A stretch of 62,186 nt of DNA, the filler included, from Bipalium vagum (Eukaryota): NCBI GenBank assembly GCA_037834085.1. It is 3 parts of 3 records of this genome, joined end to end, with 100 filler letters (N's around TTAATTAATTAA, not from the genome) between each part and the next. Parts side by side here need not be neighbours in the genome. Positions count along the whole stretch, not along the records: positions 1 to 25,706 come from JBBMKC010182074.1; 2 more parts are not named here. The stretch is one strand, 5' to 3'. The notes below the pieces were generated by a model, which made no database searches, was not told the origin of the DNA, and saw only the letters and a program-made list of their open reading frames with translations. The translations under genes and the position numbers were made by a program. This document shows, in pieces, positions 3,701 to 45,855 of the stretch. The number at the start of each line of letters is the position of its first letter. Within the stretch, counting starts at the first letter, position 1.

Positions 3701-4551
3701 TTATAATTTTTCAACAATATATATAGAGAGAGAGAGATAATTATATTTTGATCAATACAAGCAATTAAATAAATGAAAATGACAACGGGTAAAATGTTTA
3801 CACAATTTTTCTTAAAGGTCATGGCATTTGATACTCCTTATCAAATAGTGTAGAATTCGTCTATGTATATCTCATAGTTGCGAAAATATTTGCAGTCTGA
3901 AATGCAAATTATTACTGGAATGTGTAAAAATGTTATCCGAAAAATAATTACGTTTAATATTAGTATCATTGTAAATTGATAAAATGGGATATCCTAGTGT
4001 GTACATAAAAACAAAAAATATATAAAAAATGTAAAGGGCTCTTTTCACTCAAATGAGAAAAAAGAACAACTGTGACCTTTTTCAAAATATATTTTAAGAT
4101 CGAATAAAACATACGTGGAAAAACTGAGACATATTTTCAAAAAGTAAAATAAATAATTATATTGAAAAGATTGGAATAAAAATAGGTTCTATAAAAAACA
4201 AAATTACGAAAAAGTTAGAAAATTGTAGTGTAAATTTTATGAAAATCCCATTTCAAAATATTATACAGGGTGCTCCATAAATATGTATACGCTTTTAAAG
4301 CAAAAATAATAAACCAATTTTCAACCGAATTTATTAACCAAAGCGTTTTTTTGTACAAAAACTATTCATATAAAAAATGGCCATCAGCAAATTTAAGTAA
4401 TAATATATAAAATTTATTTCAAGACAGGAAACAATTTGTTTAATATTATGCAACCTAGCGTAATTCACAATCTTCAGGTTTTTCTTTTCTTGATCAGCAT
4501 GGATCATATGAGAAGGCAGTATCGCAGTTACACTTGCCTATGAGATTTGAT

Positions 4552-4715
4552 TGATTCGGAGGGTACTTTCTTCTTGCCACCGTTTGCATTTTTTCATAAA
4601 ATCCATTGAAGGAATCTTCCAGCTTTTTAATTTCATGGACTCAAAATCTTCCACATCTTCTTTCTTCATCCAAGAATCGGGAAAATATTTCCATCATATC
4701 TGTAGAATAAAGCAT
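4552..4715. repeat. Direct repeat R, copy in the 3' region of the retroelement
   Basis: Aligns with 7215-7381. The core 4563-4715 versus 7227-7381 differs by about 7 substitutions and 3 small indels. Confidence 0.95.
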
Positions 4716-4886
4716 GTCTAATTTCTTTTTTAACGAGAAATTTAAACAAATTTAATTATATTTTTTTTCATTAAAAAAAAACTTTTTTAAAATGAAAAAA
4801 ATTTTTTTTGATGGTCGACAAAAAAAAATTAATTGTCGTGAACAATTTTCGGACAACATTTTAAGATTATCAAACTATTATTATTA

Positions 4887-7207
4887 TTATTTATTCATTA
4901 ATGAATTTTCGATGGACTTTTTATTGCATTTCATGATTAGTCTGTTGCCAGCCGATAGGTACTGAGTATTTGAAGTTAACAAGGACTCCAGTGAGTGGAA
5001 TTTCCATATTTTGGCGTACTGTTCAATACATGAGATTGCGCATGATTTCATTAGACGACCAATTCGTTTTTTTGGCACTCCTTTTTTTTCTAATGTTTTT
5101 TCGGTTGAAGGAGGGACTGTGCCCAGAGCACCAAAGATACAAGTGTAAATTTCGATTCTGTAATCTGGTTTGATTTTTGCCAGTTCTAGTTTTAGAAACT
5201 CATATTTCTTTATATTTTCCTTGTCACATTTTTCAAAGTTTTCAATGGTGTCCAAAGGACACTTTAAATATTCCACCAACCGTCATTGAGGAGTTTTGTT
5301 GTTGACATTTTTTTGCTCTGGTGCTATAGGGTATCGGCTTGTCATTAGACAGTGTTTGTAACTTTTGTACCCTTTTGATCTTTTCACTAGTTGGATCGTC
5401 ACTATTGGTATTTGTTTCTATTTCAGCATCTTTGATTAAGTTATTCAAACAACCTCGGCACAGGTGTAAATTGACATTGTCCATTAGAACTTTAGTAATT
5501 CTCTTAGTCATTTTACATTTGGAGCAGATGTTCTCATTGTGTTGTTGTTTGTTCTCGTTCACACAGTTGGCGTTGCTTTTTACTTGTCTTGCAATCAGGG
5601 TTTCTGAGCTTGCTTTCATATTCCTATTATTCTCATTTTTGTTGATTTCATGCGGAGGAATGTATCCAGTAAATTTTTTCTTTGATTGGCTCCAGTATCT
5701 CGTGAGGAATTCTGTGAGATAATCAATTACAACTGTCGCGCCTGCCCATAGGGAGTTAAGACATACAAGCTTAGACCCTCTACCTATACAAAACTTTCTA
5801 CTGCCAGATAACAAGGATTTGCGTTTTTCGCAGATTAAATTGAATATGAATTTTATTGCATCAGCATTATAGTCGTTTCCCAACCGGTATATGATTTCCA
5901 TTTGTTCTTGTTTATCTTGCGAGTTGGTGTCAATGAACCGAAAGACAGAATTGATTTTCAGTATCATTTCATAATCGATTATATCGTTACAATTATCCAT
6001 TTCAGCAATTAGTTTTAGGGTTTTCAACTCATTTAAAGCGTTTTTGCATGCTATTGCTAGGCCAGAATTGATGTTCATCTTAGATAGCAGTCCTGACAGC
6101 AGTCCCACTCAGTGATTTTGTCTTTCGAGTGTGACATGACAATTTCGCAATTTTCCTTTGACGATATTAAGAAAGAGTTGCAAAGGGTGTTCCTTGCTTT
6201 GCTCGAATTTTCTGTCAGGAACCAATAGTTAATCGTTTAAATTGTTCTCCTGATCTGCTCCATCGAGGACGAAACACTGTTCGGCTAGTTTTGGAAACTG
6301 TCGGAATAATTTCAAGTTTTCCTTGTCTGAAAGCGGTTCCTGTCCTTGATGGTTTAGTGAGCATGAAAGTAAATCGTTATACAATAGTTCGCCATTAACA
6401 CAAAGAATTTGTGATTGCGTGAGGTAATCTGGAAGTTGATGATTTTTTGTTAGGTTACGAATGATTTCATTTACTTTTGCTGTTCTGATATCGATGTTTT
6501 TAATTAAAAGTGTGCTTTGGAATGCACTAGATAATGCAAATAGAAATTTCTGAATCGATATGGGAACACTGACCAGGATTTTTGAGCTTAAGTTAGTTGG
6601 TACGATTTGTGACTGTATAATTCTAAAGCCATCAAATATAACATTCTTGGTACTGTTTTGAGATGCTCTAAGGTTTTTATAAAAGACTTGCGATACTTAT
6701 TCTGAAATCTGACATGGAATTTGTTATCATAAAAGTGTATTGATTTAAAGTTTTCCAATTCTAAACATTCTCCAATGTTTGCACTTGCTCTAATTTCTTT
6801 TTGATGAGGGCGAATTTTCTTCTAGAATTTTTTAATTTGCATAATTCTAGGAGATTCGGAAATTTTTTGAATAGACGCCTACGTTCCCTGACAGATAGTG
6901 GTCGTAATGATTCCTTTAAATGGGTTGCCTCATCTTGACGTTTCTCTACTCTTTTTTCATCTTTTGGTAAGCATTTATTGTTAGGCACATCACTAGTTTT
7001 TTCCATTGGAATTTTTGATTTATTAGAAACAATAGTAGCATCATCGGTAGATTCGTTTTTAGCAATTAATACAGGTGTTTTGATTGATGATGTTTTAAAA
7101 CCCTTGTCAATATTCGACAAAAACTCGCTAATCTTGTTCATTTGAGCGCAGAGATCATTAACTTTTGCGTCTAAATTATCCAGCAGAGAATGGAATTTTG
7201 ATTGCAT
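4887..7207 (-). pseudogene. Disrupted polyprotein ORF of the RLE retroelement (N-terminal region, CxxC-x17-CxxC finger, RLE C-terminus)
   Basis: ORFs 6761-7207, 5242-6108 and 4887-5279, plus an unlisted open stretch at about 6240-6665 in the same frame as 5242-6108. They are linked by frameshifts and two in-frame stops. No YxDD or other RT motifs seen. Confidence 0.7.
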
Positions 7208-7214
7208 ATTAAAA

Positions 7215-7381
7215 TGATCCGGAGACGTACTTTCTTTCTTCTTGCCACCGTCTGCATTTTTTCATAAAATCCATTAAAGGAATTTTCCAGCTTTTTAAAT
7301 TTCACGGACTCCAAATCTTCCACATATTTCTTCATCCAAGAATCGGTAAAATATTTCCATCATATCTGTAGAATAAAGCAT
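7215..7381. repeat. Direct repeat R, copy at the 5' terminus of the retroelement
   Basis: Second copy of 4552-4715. It abuts the 36-bp target duplication exactly. Confidence 0.95.
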
Positions 7382-8479
7382 AAAAATGGCTATCAGCAAA
7401 TTTAAGTAATAATATATTAAAATAGTTCAGTTTGTATTAATGGACATTTTTGTAATCTTAGCATTAAAGATCTGCAAACTTTCTGACACAAATCTCCTGG
7501 AGTCCGACTGATTTCTCCGTAACGTTTTCTATAAATTTATAAAATTTTTATATTTTTCCAATAATATACAAAAATACTTCATGTTCATTGGTAAATTTTA
7601 ATTTGTCTAAACGCGTATACATATTTATGAAACACCCTGTATTAGTAAACATGCAGATACTGGTAAACATACTTAAAAAAAGTACTAATAAAAGTACTAA
7701 TGAAAAAACGCATGTATCAGTAAAAAATGTAATAGGAAAATATTAATGAAAAACTTTGAAAACTGGAAAGAGGGAAAAACTAGAAAAAATCTTTTCATAT
7801 TATTCAAAAAAATATTTCATGTTGCAGATCATGTAAGTAAAAGAAAATTATTAGTTGATACAGTAATATAATTTATAAAAATTACATATGAATAAAATAT
7901 GACATAATTTCTGAAGAGATATAAGAAAACCTACAGGAAAAAACAATAATGAATTAAATCTAGAATAAAATAGTTATCAAGAATGGTAATTGGAAATAAG
8001 AAATGAAATGGAAATCTGAGTTTTATCTTTTATATCATTTTGGGAGAAACATTTGTAGGTTAAAGTGATACTGGAAAATTAACTTGTGAAAAAGGGTAAA
8101 GAAACTCATCAAAGTGTAATTCAGCAAAAACAGACAGGGAAAACTTTATTTATATTTTGATCTTTAATTTTTTAAGAGAAAACTATTTTGAATAGTTTTA
8201 CATGTAAAAAATTAGAAACAAATAAAATTAATTTAAAGAGCGCTCAAAAAGACTTGTTAAAAATATAAATTTAGATTATTCAATAAGGCAGTGGCTTTTT
8301 CATTTATTCTCATGATAACAGGTAAAGCATTTTTTATTTAACAAAACATTCCATATTTGTTAAATTCTCACAGCTCTTATTAAAAAATTTCTAAGCTTAC
8401 TATAAAAATACCTCCTTTGATTCTCATGTACATATGGAAATAATCAATTTTCTAATTTTGATTTAATATAAATAAATTT

Positions 8480-10190: not shown

Positions 10191-11310
10191 CACCTGATTT
10201 GAAAAATATTTATTGAAATTTAAAAACTTAAAAAAATTATTTCAATATTTAAACAAATTATAAATTGCTACTTAAATAAAATTATACATTTTAAACATAA
10301 GATGTACCTATTAATTTCTGAAAATAACCGTAAAACATTTTGACCACAAACTTTTGCATCACCATAGTATTAAATATAAAGATAAATTAATTTGTGATTT
10401 CACAATTTTTCAATTTAAGAAATATTTAAAATAAGAATTCAATACAACTTGGACTTAGATTTCGGTCCGTGATGTAGAATTTATTTTATGAATATTCCTA
10501 GTACTTATTATGATGCTTGTGTCAAGTGATATTTCCTGACAAAAAATATTGATAATATTCCATTAAATTAATTTGATTTTGTGCTAATAATAAATTTAAC
10601 AATTATGAAGTTAAGATTATTAATATTATTATTATTATACAGTAATTATAAAGCACGTAAATATATTTTATTAATTTATATAAAAATTAATTATTTAACA
10701 AGTAATAATAAATAATGGCAATATTAATTATGTGTGAAAACTTAAATTTACAATCCTATATTTATTCTGAGACATCGAGATTGTTCTACTTATCAACTTT
10801 CAGTTAATTTTTATTTATTAGTAGTATCGGTAAATATATTATTTCGATAATAAAATTTATCAAAATCTGGATAAAATTTCTGTTACACAATATCAAACAG
10901 TCAATCCATTATTTTATTATTCTATAAAAAACCTTATAGTTTAATGTTAATTTGTTATAAGCCTTAACTAACCTTTCTGATGATACAAAATGTTTCGATA
11001 TGGTGTCAGTTATGCTCTCTCCATAAAACAAGATAAAAGAAATGCAGTTTTATATTGCTCCATCAAAATTGTATTCATTTATTTCATTGTTAGATCACTA
11101 CAGATATGATATCTCAGGTGCACCTAAAGGGTAGTTAATAGAGAGAAATGAGAAAAAATAAGAATTCGATTAGATATCTTTTTGGAAAAACTTATTTACC
11201 CTCTCTATACAATCCATTTTTATAAAACCCATTATTTCGTACATTATGAATTAAAAATCTCCAAAGTAGAATTGCACTATCACATTGACAATACACATTT
11301 AAACAATTTA

Positions 11311-11529
11311 CAGTCCCCACCAAAAGTCTTTGGCCACTTTGGAAAAAAGCCTAGTTTATCTTTTAGTTATTTATTTTTTATAATATATAATTATAAATGT
11401 TCTTGTGAACTTATTTCTAATGTCGTTAACGTTCTTTACATTTGTACTTAATAAATATTAATGACTAGAATCATATAAATGATTTTTTCTAGAATTTTAA
11501 GAGTGGCCAAAGACTTTTGGCGGGGATTG
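11311..11529. mobile_element. Tc1-like MITE, 219 bp
   Basis: 28-bp TIRs cagtccccaccaaaagtctttggccact (26/28 match), TA on both sides, non-coding interior. Confidence 0.9.
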
Positions 11530-12079
11530 TATATTTCATAAGGGTAATACAATATCAGATTGTCGTGTGTGTAAATATATTCACTATTTAAGTTGTTTTT
11601 AAAACCTTTTAAAATTATTACCTTGTCTATCATGGTAATTTTGGATGATTTCCAGGTGAATAACAACAATAACACAGAATACTCAGTAGATTGCCAATTT
11701 TCTTCTGTGCTTAGAAACCAATAGAACCCCGTTAGATAAAATTCATATTCAGTGATTATTTAATATAAAAGAGAAGACAAAAGGAAACCAAGAAGTAATT
11801 AAGGTGCCCTTCTAGTTCTTAACATCATCTTTTCAATCAGAAACAAACTTTAAACAATTAATTTGTGTTTCATTATCTAATTTCAATATTTATGATGCTG
11901 AATTTTGTTAATTTAAGAGACCCTTGAGATGTTTTACTGAATGTTATTTTTGTTTCCCTTTTACAAGAAAACAAATCAAAATCAATATTACAGAATATAT
12001 TTTGATTACAATGATACAAAAAACAACTATTTGAATATTTTTTAAGAAAAATAAACGGACATTTTAAAATCAAGAAATA

Positions 12080-14032: not shown

Positions 14033-15040
14033 TTATAATGAAACTGAAATCTCGTCATCATAACTGCTTTCACAACCTGATGAAGAATAGTCCATAAATT
14101 TCCATTCATCTGTATTCCAAAGATCTTGAAAAGGTATTTCAGTACGGGCTAAGATGTAATTGCTTGTTTTCAGAGCTATAACTTCAATGGTATCATGAGC
14201 AAAGTTATTTAAAATGTGGCTTCCATCTTTTGTTGCTTTTTCTAGATCTTCTCGTCTCTTCAATATTTTCTCAATTCTCAATTTATCTTTATAAAATTCC
14301 GAAAAATTACTGACTATAATTGGTATTGGCAATGCTACTACCAATACTCCGATAACACAACATAAAGACGCAAAAACCTGGCCCAATGGTGATTCCGGAT
14401 AAACATCCCCATAGCCAACGGTAGACATACTAATTATTGCCCACCAGAATGTATGAGGGATGCTGGGAAACATCACGATATTAGTATCTTTTTCAGCAAA
14501 ATAAACTAAGCTGGAGAAAAGAGACACTCCTATGGCAATAAAACTTACGAGAAGACCTAGCTCTTTGTAACTTTTTTGAAGTGTATATCCTAATGACTGA
14601 AGTCCAATGGAATGACGAGCTAACTTCAAGACTCGTAAGATTCTTAAAATCCGGAATACCTGAACTACTCTGCTAATTGACTCAAGCTTATCACTATGGC
14701 TTTTATATACATTAGTAACTATGAGAGTCAGAAAAAATGGCGCTATAGCAATTACGTCAATAATATTCAAAAATTCCTTGATAAATTGTAACGGATCAGA
14801 TACAGATATGAGTCGCAATACATACTCTAAAGTAAACCATGTTATACAGATATATTCGATAATTTCAAATACATCGTTTTGTAAATTCTCTGGATGACCG
14901 TCCTTGACCAATTTTCCAATTGCTAAGGAATTCTTGTCTTCCGTACTTGATTTATTTGTTTTGTTTCCAAATGGAACAGTACTTACAACAAGACAAACTG
15001 TTGATAAGACAATAAATAGTATCGATATCACAGCCATTAC
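14033..15040 (-). CDS. Shab: Voltage-gated potassium channel Kv2/Shab, terminal exon (S1-S6 and C-terminus)
   Basis: S4 RVVQVFRILRILRVLKLARHSIGLQSLGYTL, pore WWAIISMSTVGYGD, S6 ALPIPIIV and Kv2-type EFYK..R.EK..KRRE.LE.A..GS. Phase-0 acceptor cttcatttag|GTAATG at 15041/15040, at the position of the conserved Kv2 intron before S1. T1 exon not found in the window. Confidence 0.93.
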   Translation of the reverse strand, partial: VMAVISILFIVLSTVCLVVSTVPFGNKTNKSSTEDKNSLAIGKLVKDGHPENLQNDVFEIIEYICITWFTLEYVLRLISVSDPLQFIKEFLNIIDVIAIAPFFLTLIVTNVYKSHSDKLESISRVVQVFRILRILRVLKLARHSIGLQSLGYTLQKSYKELGLLVSFIAIGVSLFSSLVYFAEKDTNIVMFPSIPHTFWWAIISMSTVGYGDVYPESPLGQVFASLCCVIGVLVVALPIPIIVSNFSEFYKDKLRIEKILKRREDLEKATKDGSHILNNFAHDTIEVIALKTSNYILARTEIPFQDLWNTDEWKFMDYSSSGCESSYDDEISVSL

Positions 15041-20000: not shown

Positions 20001-22099
20001 AAATAAATAATTCAAATATATCCTATTTTTATATCTATGAATTATTTTTAATAAATTGTTTTATATTAATGTAAAAACTGTACCTTAAACTACACGGAAT
20101 CAAAAAAGTAATAAAAAATAATTATATGTAATAAATCAATAAGTATTATGATAATAAAAATTGAACAAGATCTTATTTATTTCGGAACAAAAAATCCTTC
20201 CAAAAAACTAAATTTAAAAGAAAAGAGATTATTATTAAATTATGATTACCAGAGGTAATTTAATATCTCTTTCGGTATAAATGATTATAACTGAATTTGC
20301 AGTTCAATCGTCTTCTTCTATAACGATATAATCAAAGCCAACGAACCATTCATTATGTTAACCAGATTTGTCCCTTTCAAAGTTTTCATTTGCTTTGGAA
20401 ACATTAATTATACAGGAAAATTATTTAATGAAAGTTCAGTTAATGGATTTATAAAAGCTCTTCTTTCTGAAGGGTTATTTTATAACCTCTTTGACTAGTT
20501 CAACTCGTTTAGTGACGATTATAATCAATTGATTTGTTAGTTATATTATTAAATAAAGTCAAATAATATATTATATCTTTGTGATCTCAAAAAAACTAAT
20601 AGGAAACATTTTATGGGATTCAAATCTGGATTTATCTTTGTTTTATCTTCTCCTATTAGCATCTTTGATAACAATGTTTCCCCTACCGTTTCTTAAGCAA
20701 ATTGCAAAGAAAATTACCACCACCAATGTTTCTTTCTGTCAATTTATGATGTACCAAAGTATCATAGCGAGAGATACATAATATTTCTACGAGATGAGTA
20801 CACAGGTTATTTCACAGCTGTTTGTTATTTTTAACATATCTTATATGCCTCACATTGTTCTGTATTGCCTTTTTTGAGATAGAGTAACTTTATGCTCATT
20901 TTTGTTAGCAGTGTTTAATAATGTTATGTCAGGTGTGAGTTGAAAAGATGTTTTAAAATTTTGATAGCTGCTGTGTTATCGCATGACCTCGATAATTTTG
21001 ATACATTTTCTGTTCGTGGTTGATTAATTAGAATAAGATCAATCAAACATATTTGTTTAATAAGTAATAAAATTAGCTTTATACTCTAAAATCCTGTAGA
21101 ATTTTTTTTGGTCCAGAACTTTTCGGAAAACTAGACGAGTACGGAATTATTTGAGTATTTTTGTGGAAAAAGGGGAAAATTCGTTTATTTTCAAATATTT
21201 CTGAATAATCATATCCAAGAGGTATCGAGTCTGTCATTAATATTGTTAAAAACGATTTCGTTTTCTTGATATTGAAACTTAAAATTGTCACCAAACCACT
21301 AATCTTGCGCAATTATTAAATCACTCATGTCATTCAGAACTTTTTAAAAAATTTGAAAGGAATTCAGTAAGTGTTTTATGAAGTTAGAAGCCTTCTTGAA
21401 ATGATTTTATTATTTTCTGTTCTTTTAGTTCACTGGAAGCAATTCAAAGCGAAAATTGAATTATGGATTTAATAGATTTAAATCATTAAACATTGAGTGC
21501 TGAAGAAGTCCTTTTAATCAACCAGTAATCATACATAATATTGAATATATGAATAGAATATATATGGTGATAAATATCTTTCTTTGAAGTATGACTCTTA
21601 GCATTGTTGAATATTAATAAAATTATATTTTGCGGTGTTAATGCAGTAAGAAACATATTTTCTATCAAATTATTGAACAGTTTTATAAATCCAAGATTTT
21701 TCAGAAGAAATATGCAAAACACCATTTACAATCTAGATGAATTTAATCTTTGGTTTAAAAACGAGATTGGGCATAACTCCTTGCAGTGGCAAAATCTGCC
21801 CAAATACCTTTTACTCAGAATCTAGACATTTTCCTACTGAGAACATCAACTTTATCATAAAGTTGGCAAAGTCAATTCACATTTATTTATTTAAAGGTTA
21901 CATAGACATATATTTTCTGAGTACTTAGATTTTCTAGTAATTTGTTTGATCCAGAATTTCTGGAAACATATTACAATTTACATGGTGATTGATAATTAAC
22001 TCCCTATTGAATTATTGAATTATTTTTTTCAACTTATAAGGTATTTATAACATAAATTAAACCGATTATTTTAATATTAAGATTTAAAAATAATATGAC

Positions 22100-22537
22100 C
22101 AAGCGTTTATGCAAGATGGTGCTCCTCCACATTTTGCTATCATTTTTCGTCAATGGCTGAATAAGCATTTTCCTGGGAGATGGTTTGATCGTCGTGGTCC
22201 TCATGAATGGCCGGCCAGAAGCCTTGATTTAACACCCTGTGATTTTTTCCTTTGGGGTTGGTTGAAGGAGAAAGTTTATTCCACCAAACCAAAGACTTTA
22301 GAAGAACTTGAAGTGCGATTACAAGAAAACCTTTCTGCCATCCCACAAGAGTTCCTACAAAGATCAGTCGATTCGATTCCCGAGAGACTTAGGAACTTAC
22401 AGACGAATGCTGGTTCACATTTTGAATTTTAAATAAAACTACATTTTGTGTTTGTTTTTTTTATATTAATTTTTCGTAAAAATAATATTCAGAAAAAAAG
22501 ACTTTTACAATAGGGAGTTATTTATCAATTAACCTGT
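22100..22537 (+). mobile_element. 5'-truncated DD41D (rosa/VS) transposon with right TIR
   Basis: QDGAPPH...WPARSLDLTPCDFFLWG with 41 residues between the catalytic D residues. Ends ..aattaacctg followed by ta. Confidence 0.9.
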
Positions 22538-23033: not shown

Positions 23034-23300
23034 CATTCACTTCTTTCATTCGCTTTCATTAACAATATAACTAATAATATTGGTAATCGATAACGTTAAC
23101 AGTAATAATAATAATTGAAAATATCATTATTAATCAATTAAGAATAATAGAATAATCATTAATAATAATAATAAAATTATCAAAAAATTTTAATCATTTT
23201 AATAACATAATAATTAATCATCACTAATAATAATCGATGAAAATAATTAAATATTCCCTCCAGTGCTTCACCCAGCGTAACAGAAAAAAAGAATACTCAC

Positions 23301-24305
23301 GTGCGTAAACCCGACAACATTGGTGATATTATTGGACGAGTTCCGGACGATGTTCATCATCAGATTGGCCAGATTGCACTCGTTGTTTGTTTCCTCAATC
23401 GTTTTTATAGCACTGTGCAATGACATGATCGTTTTGTAATCGCTTGTCGACAGACCTATAGTCACCGTATTTTGGACCCCATTTTGACCACCACCCACAC
23501 CGCCGCCTGCGTTTTTCGACGCATTTGCCAAGATCAGATTGGAAATGATCTGTGCACTGTTCCTGGCATCCTTGCAGCCGTTCTCCTTGACAAACCGTTT
23601 CCTGCACGTTTGACTGGTCGCCGAATTGGATTTTGACGTATCCGACTGCGTAAGATCGTCGCTTTTGATGCTTCGACAATCGTTAACGTTGCCGGTGCCA
23701 CTGATAGGGTGATTTCCCTTCGTTTTGCGTCGGTTGGTCGACATAGAATTGGAGAACGATTTCCCGACTGTGATAAAGTTGTCTTTGAGACCGACTAGTT
23801 CACCCTGAACGTCGAACACATGCGAATGGCGCAACAGGAACGCCGTGAACAGCGATTGGTTACCGATGACCAGACGAACATTGTCGGAAGCCTGGGACAA
23901 GTGTCCGGCCAGACTTTTGATTGGAATCCACTTTTCGTCCTTCTTCAGCAAATGGCTCTGGAAATATTTAACCGCTTCCGATTCCAGCGCCAAATCGATT
24001 TCGTCGACAGACAGTCGTCGTTTGTTGATCAAGCGAGCCGAATGGACGACGTTGGTTGGCAACGGTTCACTGTGACAGGAATTATCGCTCGATACTGGAA
24101 ACACAAACTCTGCATCGTAATGAAATAGAGAAGGATATTGTTTTAAAAACAACACAGTTTCGTTGATCAGATAATCGTACGTTACCACTTGCTGTGGAAA
24201 GAATTTTGTTTGATAAGTTTCCGCTATTAAATTTAAAGGTAAAGGTCCTTTGCTGTAGAGCATTTCGAGAAAATAAAGAGCCAGTTGTAAATTATGGTCT
24301 GCCAT
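23301..24305 (-). CDS. egl: Egalitarian homolog, first coding exon (N-terminal Egl winged-helix-like repeats)
   Basis: LYFLEMLYSKGP...LFLKQYPSLF and EAVKYFQSHLL...IPIKSLAGHLSQASDNVR...FTAFLLRHSHVFDV match Drosophila Egl motifs (LFFLERLLDKG; VPVRSLLGHRSQASPQVR). Phase-0 donor CAC|gtgagt at 23301/23300. Probable 76-nt 5'UTR intron at 24327-24402. Confidence 0.88.
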
Positions 24306-45107: not shown

Positions 45108-45855
45108 CAGGGTGTCAGCTATTTGATGACAAAAATTGATATTAAGGGTGAGTAATATTTTTAATGAAAAGAATGCATATTTTTAAGCAATATTAGAAAC
45201 TTTATTTGTTTTAAGTATACAAGTTTTATTTATTCAATAAAATCGCCTTCAGCATCAATTACAGCTTCAAGACGGCTTCTGAAAAGCTTACAACCCACAA
45301 TAAAATGGTTTTTGTTCATATTTATCATAGGAGAACTTATAGAAGCCCGTAATGAATCTTTGGTATTATGAAGATGTCTGTTCGTCTCCTTCTCTACGAC
45401 GCCCCACACGAAATAGTCCAAAGGATTTAAATCGGGTGAGCTAGGTGGCAATAAGTTTGTAGTGATGTAGTCGTTAAATTTTAGCGATAGCCATTTTTGT
45501 GTTTTTAATGCTTTATGGCAGGGAGCTGAGTCTTGCTGGAATACACAAGGCCTTCCGTCGGCAACCTTTTCAATCCAGGACTTCACATATGTATCCAGAC
45601 ACTCGATATAAAGAGATGCATTAATTCTAAATCTCTGTGGAAAGAAATACGGAGGCATAATATGACCTTCGTTGATCACAAACCCAATATCATTAAAGAT
45701 GATGGAAACTTGGTATGCATAACACTAGGGACCTCAGAAGCTTTGGAGCACAGCCATCAATTGTTCCTTCTATTAATTTTTTGATCTTGAGTAAAAAGTT
45801 TTTCATCAGAAAAGAACCATAGCATGTTTGGATGATCAGGATGCTTGATTTTGTT
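45108..45855 (-). mobile_element. DD37D (maT) transposon 3' half with TIR, truncated by the contig end
   Basis: FFSDEKLF, then FQQDSAPCH...PPSSPDLNPLDYFVWG with 37-residue D-D spacing. TIR ta|cagggtgtc at 45108. Confidence 0.9.

Follow-up and report, generated by a model that had tools for sequence, protein, structure and literature searches.

A restriction-like endonuclease retrotransposon family in Bipalium vagum repeats the start of its first open reading frame near its 3′ end and may recopy its 5′ end from that repeat

The window analyzed here is a stretch of 62,186 nucleotides of Bipalium vagum DNA (GCA_037834085.1), of which positions 1–25706 are contig C182074 of a 441-Mb assembly in 272,664 contigs. 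Inside a miniature inverted-repeat transposable element (MITE) on this contig lies an element that is, on sequence grounds, a dead, internally deleted copy of a family of retrotransposons that lack long terminal repeats (non-LTR) and have a restriction-like endonuclease (RLE) and two open reading frames (ORFs) (Table 1). The window element and its family have the layout R–ORF1–ORF2–spacer–R–tail, in which the repeat R comprises the first ~12 nt and the first ~55 codons of ORF1 (~170 bp), and its second copy ends 143 bp before the 3′ end of the element. Our concern is how the two copies of R are kept alike, and what this would mean for the way in which such elements complete their 5′ ends.

Table 1. 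Features of the window element and its host (positions along the window; UTR, untranslated region)
Feature	Position	Strand	Remarks
Host MITE	4266–7639	not assigned	Tc1/mariner-like inverted ends flanked by TA; 365 bp once the insert is removed
Target-site duplication, copy at element 3′ end	4373–4408		36 bp; 4–5 further bases common to the element end
Non-LTR element	4409–7381	minus	2,973 bp, inside the 365-bp MITE
3′ tail	4409–4551	minus	143 bp; AATAAA at 4418–4413; no poly(A)
3′ copy of R	4552–4727	minus	12 nt of 5′ leader and first ~55 ORF1 codons; ATG at 4715
Private 1-nt deletion in R, ~+125	7245–7263 and 4577–4595	minus	in both window R copies
3′ UTR spacer, ORF2 to R	4728–4886	minus	A/T-rich
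ORF2 C-terminal remnant	4887–5269	minus	second half of the RLE; only the lysine of D-x-K left
Deletion junction	5267–5274	minus	9 nt past the ORF1 stop; 4–7 filler bases
ORF1, broken	5283–7381	minus	interrupted by frameshifts and stops and by a 250-bp deletion at 6233; CxxC...CxxC motif close to its end
5′ copy of R	7222–7381	minus	start of ORF1; begins at the ATG
Target-site duplication, copy at element 5′ end	7382–7417		36 bp

An earlier note on this DNA had described a 36-bp target-site duplication around the element, with a single mismatch in 36 between its copies. The duplication is genuine, because the 36-mer occurs once, with its left and right flanks joined, in 19/19 empty copies of the host MITE (the best 19 of 47 matches; 40 scored of the 315 first-look candidates that make this MITE family an abundant one in the assembly), and because both window copies share a private base, a G that is present in 0/17 of the displayed empty copies. 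The pair of R copies, the spacer and the AATAAA-bearing tail described in the same note are also there, with 171 bp from the last stop codon to the 3′ R; the AATAAA ends four bases short of the 3′ end of the element. This 3′ end point is identical in many copies despite unrelated flanks, and the family as a whole combines a fixed 3′ end with variable 5′ truncation, and has neither an integrase nor LTR termini. No shared target sequence was detected, nor any targeting of 28S rRNA or tRNA genes: the 3′ flanks of ~30 copies are alike only in A/T, and no RNA family was found in the window stretch. Duplications of 30–40 bp, which the note had anticipated as a trait of the family, were not borne out; among 24 short copies, long target duplications stand above shuffled sequences in only two (~63 bp and ~80 bp, with ends set from BLAST), so a length of 36 bp does not characterize the family.

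Searching the assembly with the window element returned 54 matches. Where a single ORF of ~770 codons had been read previously, there are two frames: the ORF1 stop is conserved in 9/9 alignable copies (11 tried), and ORF2 starts two codons past this stop, in the same frame, with GTG or ATG, so the window copy consists of a broken ORF1 followed by an ORF2 stump of ~95–125 codons. The stump is 45% identical (tblastn) to residues 1438–1529 of a relative, P0002. Another family copy, C250185 (G000), carries 3.5 kb extra between window positions 5274 and 5269, and this segment accounts for the reverse transcriptase (RT), CCHC knuckle, and PD motif that the earlier note had seen to be missing. Also lost with it from the window copy are the Ulp1 protease and the rest of the first half of the RLE, so that both catalytic aspartates of the endonuclease are gone. 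In C250185, Peptidase_C48 exceeds the Pfam cut-off, RVT_1 is matched at E 1e-9, and the CCHC and RVD..DVK motifs are present; the family motif at the PD position is RVD or RID, and the domain order of ORF2 is Ulp1 protease, RT, CCHC, RLE. No homolog of ORF1 was found in Pfam, in Atlas, by a protein search (longer proteins only), or among the fetched proteins. The two ORFs share one frame with a C after the intervening stop (5285–5274, minus strand), the sequence being TGA-C in 7/9 copies and also in a distant two-ORF relative, L174 (2283–2288), in which ORF2 directly follows the stop with no nearby ATG. Stop-plus-C is a readthrough context known from viruses, and stop-codon readthrough between ORF1 and ORF2 is, by analogy, possible.

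The junction of the 3.5-kb deletion is spanned by 0/17 other matches (16 contigs), so the recurrence of the junction near 5275 that had been envisaged was not observed, and different large deletions are common in other family copies; the window element is therefore one decayed copy, and the deletion likely represents decay of this copy alone. The note had raised the separate idea that the deleted form is a non-autonomous family (R–ORF1–R–tail) moved in trans, which we regard as improbable. The deletion begins just past the likely ORF2 start codon and spares ORF1, both copies of R, and the tail; the resulting layout is that of TRE5-A.2 (PMC3159450), and the filler bases could stem from a jump of the RT. 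Nevertheless, the junction is unique, ORF1 is itself broken, and the deletions seen in other copies are large ones of their own.

The assignment of R to the start of ORF1 follows from contig C19128, which reads in frame from R into ORF1 without a stop (55 open codons are obtained in 1.3% of shuffles). The two window copies, compared over 7222–7381 and 4552–4715, are 92.7% identical across 151 columns including gaps, and differ by 9 substitutions in 155 columns (5.8%). R occurs at both positions family-wide, as the earlier note had asked of other copies: there are four other 5′ copies and more than 20 3′ copies, the order endonuclease–spacer–R–tail is contiguous in four other contigs, and R precedes ORF1 in C252281, C19128, and C201762, and across a deletion in C212945. 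The 5′ ends of these four copies lie 12, 12, 10, and 11 nt before the ATG, respectively, and the bases in between agree with those that lead into the 3′ R. The 5′ copy of the window element starts at the ATG itself, and 0/5 5′ ends run more than 12 nt into the 3′ spacer. An older subfamily ~25% away has the same 3′-end layout, with the R match extending 20 nt further into ORF1 (23 and 11 of 1000 shuffles were as good). Composite repeats also carry the ORF1 start preceded by an R remnant. A decayed 5′ end of the family lies inside a larger repeat and has spread with it (L043:4930–5690, also L044, L045, L046, and L073; ~92% identity over several kb).

Several other accounts of this arrangement were examined and rejected. 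The tail does not appear to be an older, longer copy of ORF1, this match not being significant in the window (990 of 1000 shuffles), and the layout is not a tandem of a full and a short bipartite element, since the spacer end is unlike the tail end (968 of 1000 shuffles were as good). A spliced leader at the 5′ ends was likewise discarded, the five 5′ copies having no common upstream sequence. R matched no ribozyme or structured RNA in Rfam up to E 5, and its folding (z +1.04) provided no fold or ribozyme that would back RNA processing; no coding constraint on R was seen, in what is a weak test. The tail contains a good splice-donor match ~20 nt past R (4526–4535, minus strand; AG/GCAAGT, with AG/GTAAGT in some copies), and ahead of the 3′ R a pyrimidine run is followed by two AGs, but none of the copies proved to be spliced.

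The two R copies of the window share a private 1-nt deletion (Table 1). The exact pattern containing this deletion has two matches in the 441 Mb, which are the two R copies of the window element, and the deletion is absent from the other aligned R copies. Collapse of the R copies during assembly is unlikely, because differences between them lie 4 and 17 nt from the shared deletion. Because the deletion breaks the ORF1 frame, it would more plausibly have arisen in the unconstrained 3′ copy. In the family at large, 5′ and 3′ copies of R evolve jointly. A tree was built from 30 R copies, with hand-trimmed non-homologous ends and a single starred branch; its five 5′ copies do not group and require five changes, and a constraint that unites them is rejected (p-AU 0.0018). 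Subfamily markers at R positions 13, 14, 75, 79, 92, 97, and 100 occur in both 5′ and 3′ copies, and shared variants reach position +158. The window 5′ R is 3.9–7.0% from five young 3′ copies and 11–13% from three other 5′ copies; the ORF1 sequences of these three are also 11–14% away, so the R distances partly reflect age. At the level of these alignments, exchange between the repeats is demonstrated at least once in the window lineage, and repeatedly over the history of the family.

Short copies of R plus tail provide a further line of evidence. The set comprised 24 3′-anchored copies that break between −76 and +210, with three related loci counted once (excluded were three copies ending where a contig or locus ends, one with another element inserted in it, one that lacks a 3′ side, and four reaching further up). 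Breaks at −12 to +6 account for 6/24 copies (1.6 expected, p 0.004), and a narrower span holds five (p 0.004). Two of the six clustered copies join ORF2 sequence straight to the R start. One short R-plus-tail insertion with an ~80-bp duplication has multiplied inside another repeat (L133, L136, and L140), its target sharing ~11 nt with the R start.

With modest confidence, we propose that the two repeats are most likely kept alike by a template switch of the RT onto 3′-derived R while it finishes the 5′ end. A promoter inside R would start transcription at about −12; acting in the 3′ copy of R, it would yield a short R-plus-tail RNA of ~320 nt. Target-primed reverse transcription would begin at the tail, and close to the 5′ end the RT would exchange the long RNA for the short one as its template; the new 5′ R would then carry the mutations of the 3′ R and end at −12, and the short RNA might also be inserted alone. 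Such a switch would account for the frameshift that both copies carry, for 5′ ends that stop at −12, for the short copies, and for the joins of ORF2 sequence to R.

A number of observations weigh against this proposal. The window element is the only one with both R copies on one contig, and the comparison of R within and between insertions consequently has a single pair to draw on. Measured by raw distance, either window R is slightly closer to another copy (3.9–5.1%) than to its partner (5.8%), and the branch joining the pair has support of 81/80 and is not starred. The earlier expectation that R copies would be more alike within than between insertions is thus upheld by the shared private deletion and the mixed tree, and not by distance. 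Silent changes are not in excess among the shared R variants (7/39; random 18%), and in the breakpoint cluster, which was compared with a crude uniform null, half of the six ends were assigned by hand. The known template jumps of the R2 RT are end-to-end and not inside homology, and the distant two-ORF relative L174, a near-complete element from a metagenome, has no such repeat. In TRE5-A, the equivalent duplication was called irrelevant for retrotransposition (PMC3159450). Finally, the shared 1-nt deletion is equally explained by gene conversion.

Gene conversion is the chief rival, and we consider it a serious, if clearly less probable, explanation: the 3′ repeat would be an old functionless duplication kept alike by occasional conversion at the DNA level, and recombination would leave solo copies of R plus tail. 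This would account for the mixed tree and for short copies that start at the family 5′ end, as well as for the private deletion; the repeats are only 2.7 kb apart after the internal deletion, and the B module of TRE5-A furnishes a precedent (PMC3159450). Yet the repeat persists across subfamilies ~25% apart, although recombination would tend to remove it, and the two joins of ORF2 to the R start are not a product of recombination between repeats. The divergence of the R pair (5.8%) against that of the target duplication (1/36) looks, with wide error, as if both date from insertion.

An obligatory LTR-like cycle, in which the RNA starts in or after R and the RT lands on the 3′ UTR of its own element to rebuild promoter and 5′ end each time, appears unlikely. 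It would be compatible with shared variants that reach +158, the 20-nt longer match in the older subfamily could serve as a landing zone, and a template jump has been proposed for TART (PMC1636488). However, nothing would halt a TART-type jump of this kind at −12; it predicts 5′ ends that run on into the spacer, and none of the five does so. R contains the ORF1 start, therefore the messenger must include R. The proposal of the earlier note that the 5′ end is regenerated from a 3′ UTR repeat holds as regards exchange between R copies; regeneration at every insertion would be a further, conjectural step. A separate short element made of R and tail, brought into this arrangement by a second insertion or by mis-assembly, is very improbable and already refuted by the other copies: many short R-plus-tail copies do exist, but the contiguous order in four other contigs, the passage from 5′ R into ORF1 in three others (in frame in one), the single duplication that brackets the whole unit, and the independent contigs of run X1, which reproduce parts of the stretch without differences (and may be from the same sample), all speak against it.

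The family is identified as an RLE (R2-group) non-LTR retrotransposon, as the earlier note had supposed, given the RT, CCHC, and RVD..DVK of C250185 and the best solved matches of P0002, which are R2 proteins (E 1e-49). It probably belongs to the NeSL clade. Its RT falls in a clade of 16 mostly Ulp1-bearing sequences (SH-aLRT 99, in a quick tree of 57 rows with no named NeSL, R5, or LIN included), and Peptidase_C48 is above cut-off in C250185 and in 4/5 of the nearest relatives scanned. R5, like this family, has two ORFs. Members of the NeSL clade share RT, CCHC, and RLE with the window family, and NeSL and Utopia-1_TSP are reported to have a protease, N-terminal and Ulp1-like as here; planarian R5 and LIN are placed in the clade (Kojima and Jurka, PMC4640811). 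By eye, the 3′ ends of LIN25 and LIN26 in that paper resemble the window family end (AATAAA, then a T run). Unlike that clade, the window family shows no fixed target sequence, and in the accessible text of PMC4640811 the protease is given only for nematode families and the term "direct repeat" has 0 occurrences, with no such repeat mentioned; the accessible parts of PMC7650587 and PMC2881922 do not treat such repeats either. Because L174 lacks R, the trait is not general among two-ORF relatives. L174 itself has 3–4 tandem ~145-bp G+C-rich repeats in its 3′ UTR (6068–6553) and a partial tRNA just downstream (6754–6811; E 0.014, below the family cut-off), and is perhaps of a tRNA-targeting family.

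By analogy, the layout is that of TART, a jockey-type element, and of TRE5-A, an apurinic-endonuclease (L1-like) element; the family is a member of neither, and TRE5-A, which the earlier note had not named, is the closest known parallel. In Dictyostelium discoideum, TRE5-A.1 is organized as AB-ORF1/ORF2-BC, with a 290-bp B module that includes the ORF1 start and is repeated in the 3′ UTR before a 134-bp C module, and TRE5-A.2 as AB-ORF1-BC, with most of ORF2 absent (PMC3159450). Both systems thus repeat an ORF1-start module before an end module, and the window copy resembles TRE5-A.2. In contrast to the window family, which has only ~12 nt before the ATG, an RLE, and a single copy of the deleted form, TRE5-A has tRNA genes as its targets and its promoter in a module of its own, A; joint evolution of its two B modules is not reported in the accessible text of PMC3159450. 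In Drosophila TART, the 5′ UTR and ORF1 start are repeated subterminally in the 3′ UTR, as in the window family; transcription starts in both copies, and the 3′ repeat has been reported or proposed to give rise to short transcripts, and template jumping to occur from one repeat to the other (PMC1636488). The TART repeats are near-identical within one element (PMC1636488, PMC5537684, bioRxiv 10.1101/782904). TART is telomeric, with far longer repeats and 5′ ends of variable length, whereas the window family has a ~170-bp repeat, a fixed 5′ end, and dispersed insertions with duplications, the window element lying in a MITE and not in a telomeric head-to-tail array.

The window family is also distinct from LTR retrotransposons and from Penelope: the repeat is subterminal, ORF2 encodes Ulp1–RT–CCHC–RLE, and there is neither TG..CA with integrase nor GIY-YIG. 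In Penelope, whose endonuclease is of the GIY-YIG type, the pseudo-LTRs arise from partial tandem copies, 3′ end included. The likeness is that in both cases sequence of the 3′ region recurs as a direct repeat at the 5′ end; the difference is that the 5′ repeat of the window family is without the tail and equals the ORF1 start, in an RLE element for which no ribozyme was found.

Elsewhere in the window, a second short inverted-repeat element (11305–11535) has 41-nt arms that are 85% complementary. By eye, an exon of a voltage-gated potassium channel with the GYG pore motif (14033–15040, minus) and Tc1/mariner-type transposase fragments (22094–22432, plus; 45230–45724, minus) can be recognized. 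A further exon (23268–24305, minus) encodes an Egal-1 winged-helix domain (PF23713), with relatives in nemerteans, annelids, molluscs, and flatworms.

Together, these data raise the possibility, which we advance tentatively, of an RLE long interspersed nuclear element (LINE) with LTR-like replication, in which each round would recopy the 5′ end (promoter and ORF1 start) from the 3′ UTR repeat; terminal redundancy would then have originated independently for a third time among non-LTR elements, TART and TRE5-A being the earlier cases, and for the first time in the ancient R2/NeSL group. The main doubt on novelty is that the family may already be drawn with the R layout in Repbase; no RLE element with this layout was found in the literature, in a search that had Repbase, Dfam, and subscription papers outside its scope. 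A private mutation in both repeats constitutes direct sequence evidence of information passing between them, for a kind of repeat that was called irrelevant in TRE5-A (PMC3159450). The idea is testable, because young, intact relatives exist (15 ORF2 proteins, most ~1,500 aa, on 4–8 kb contigs). R2-group enzymes are under development for gene insertion, where completion of the 5′ end is the weak step. The finding bears on the ways in which non-LTR elements complete and shield their 5′ ends, and on the origin of LTRs; a layout common to three unrelated LINE groups would suggest a solution that has recurred.

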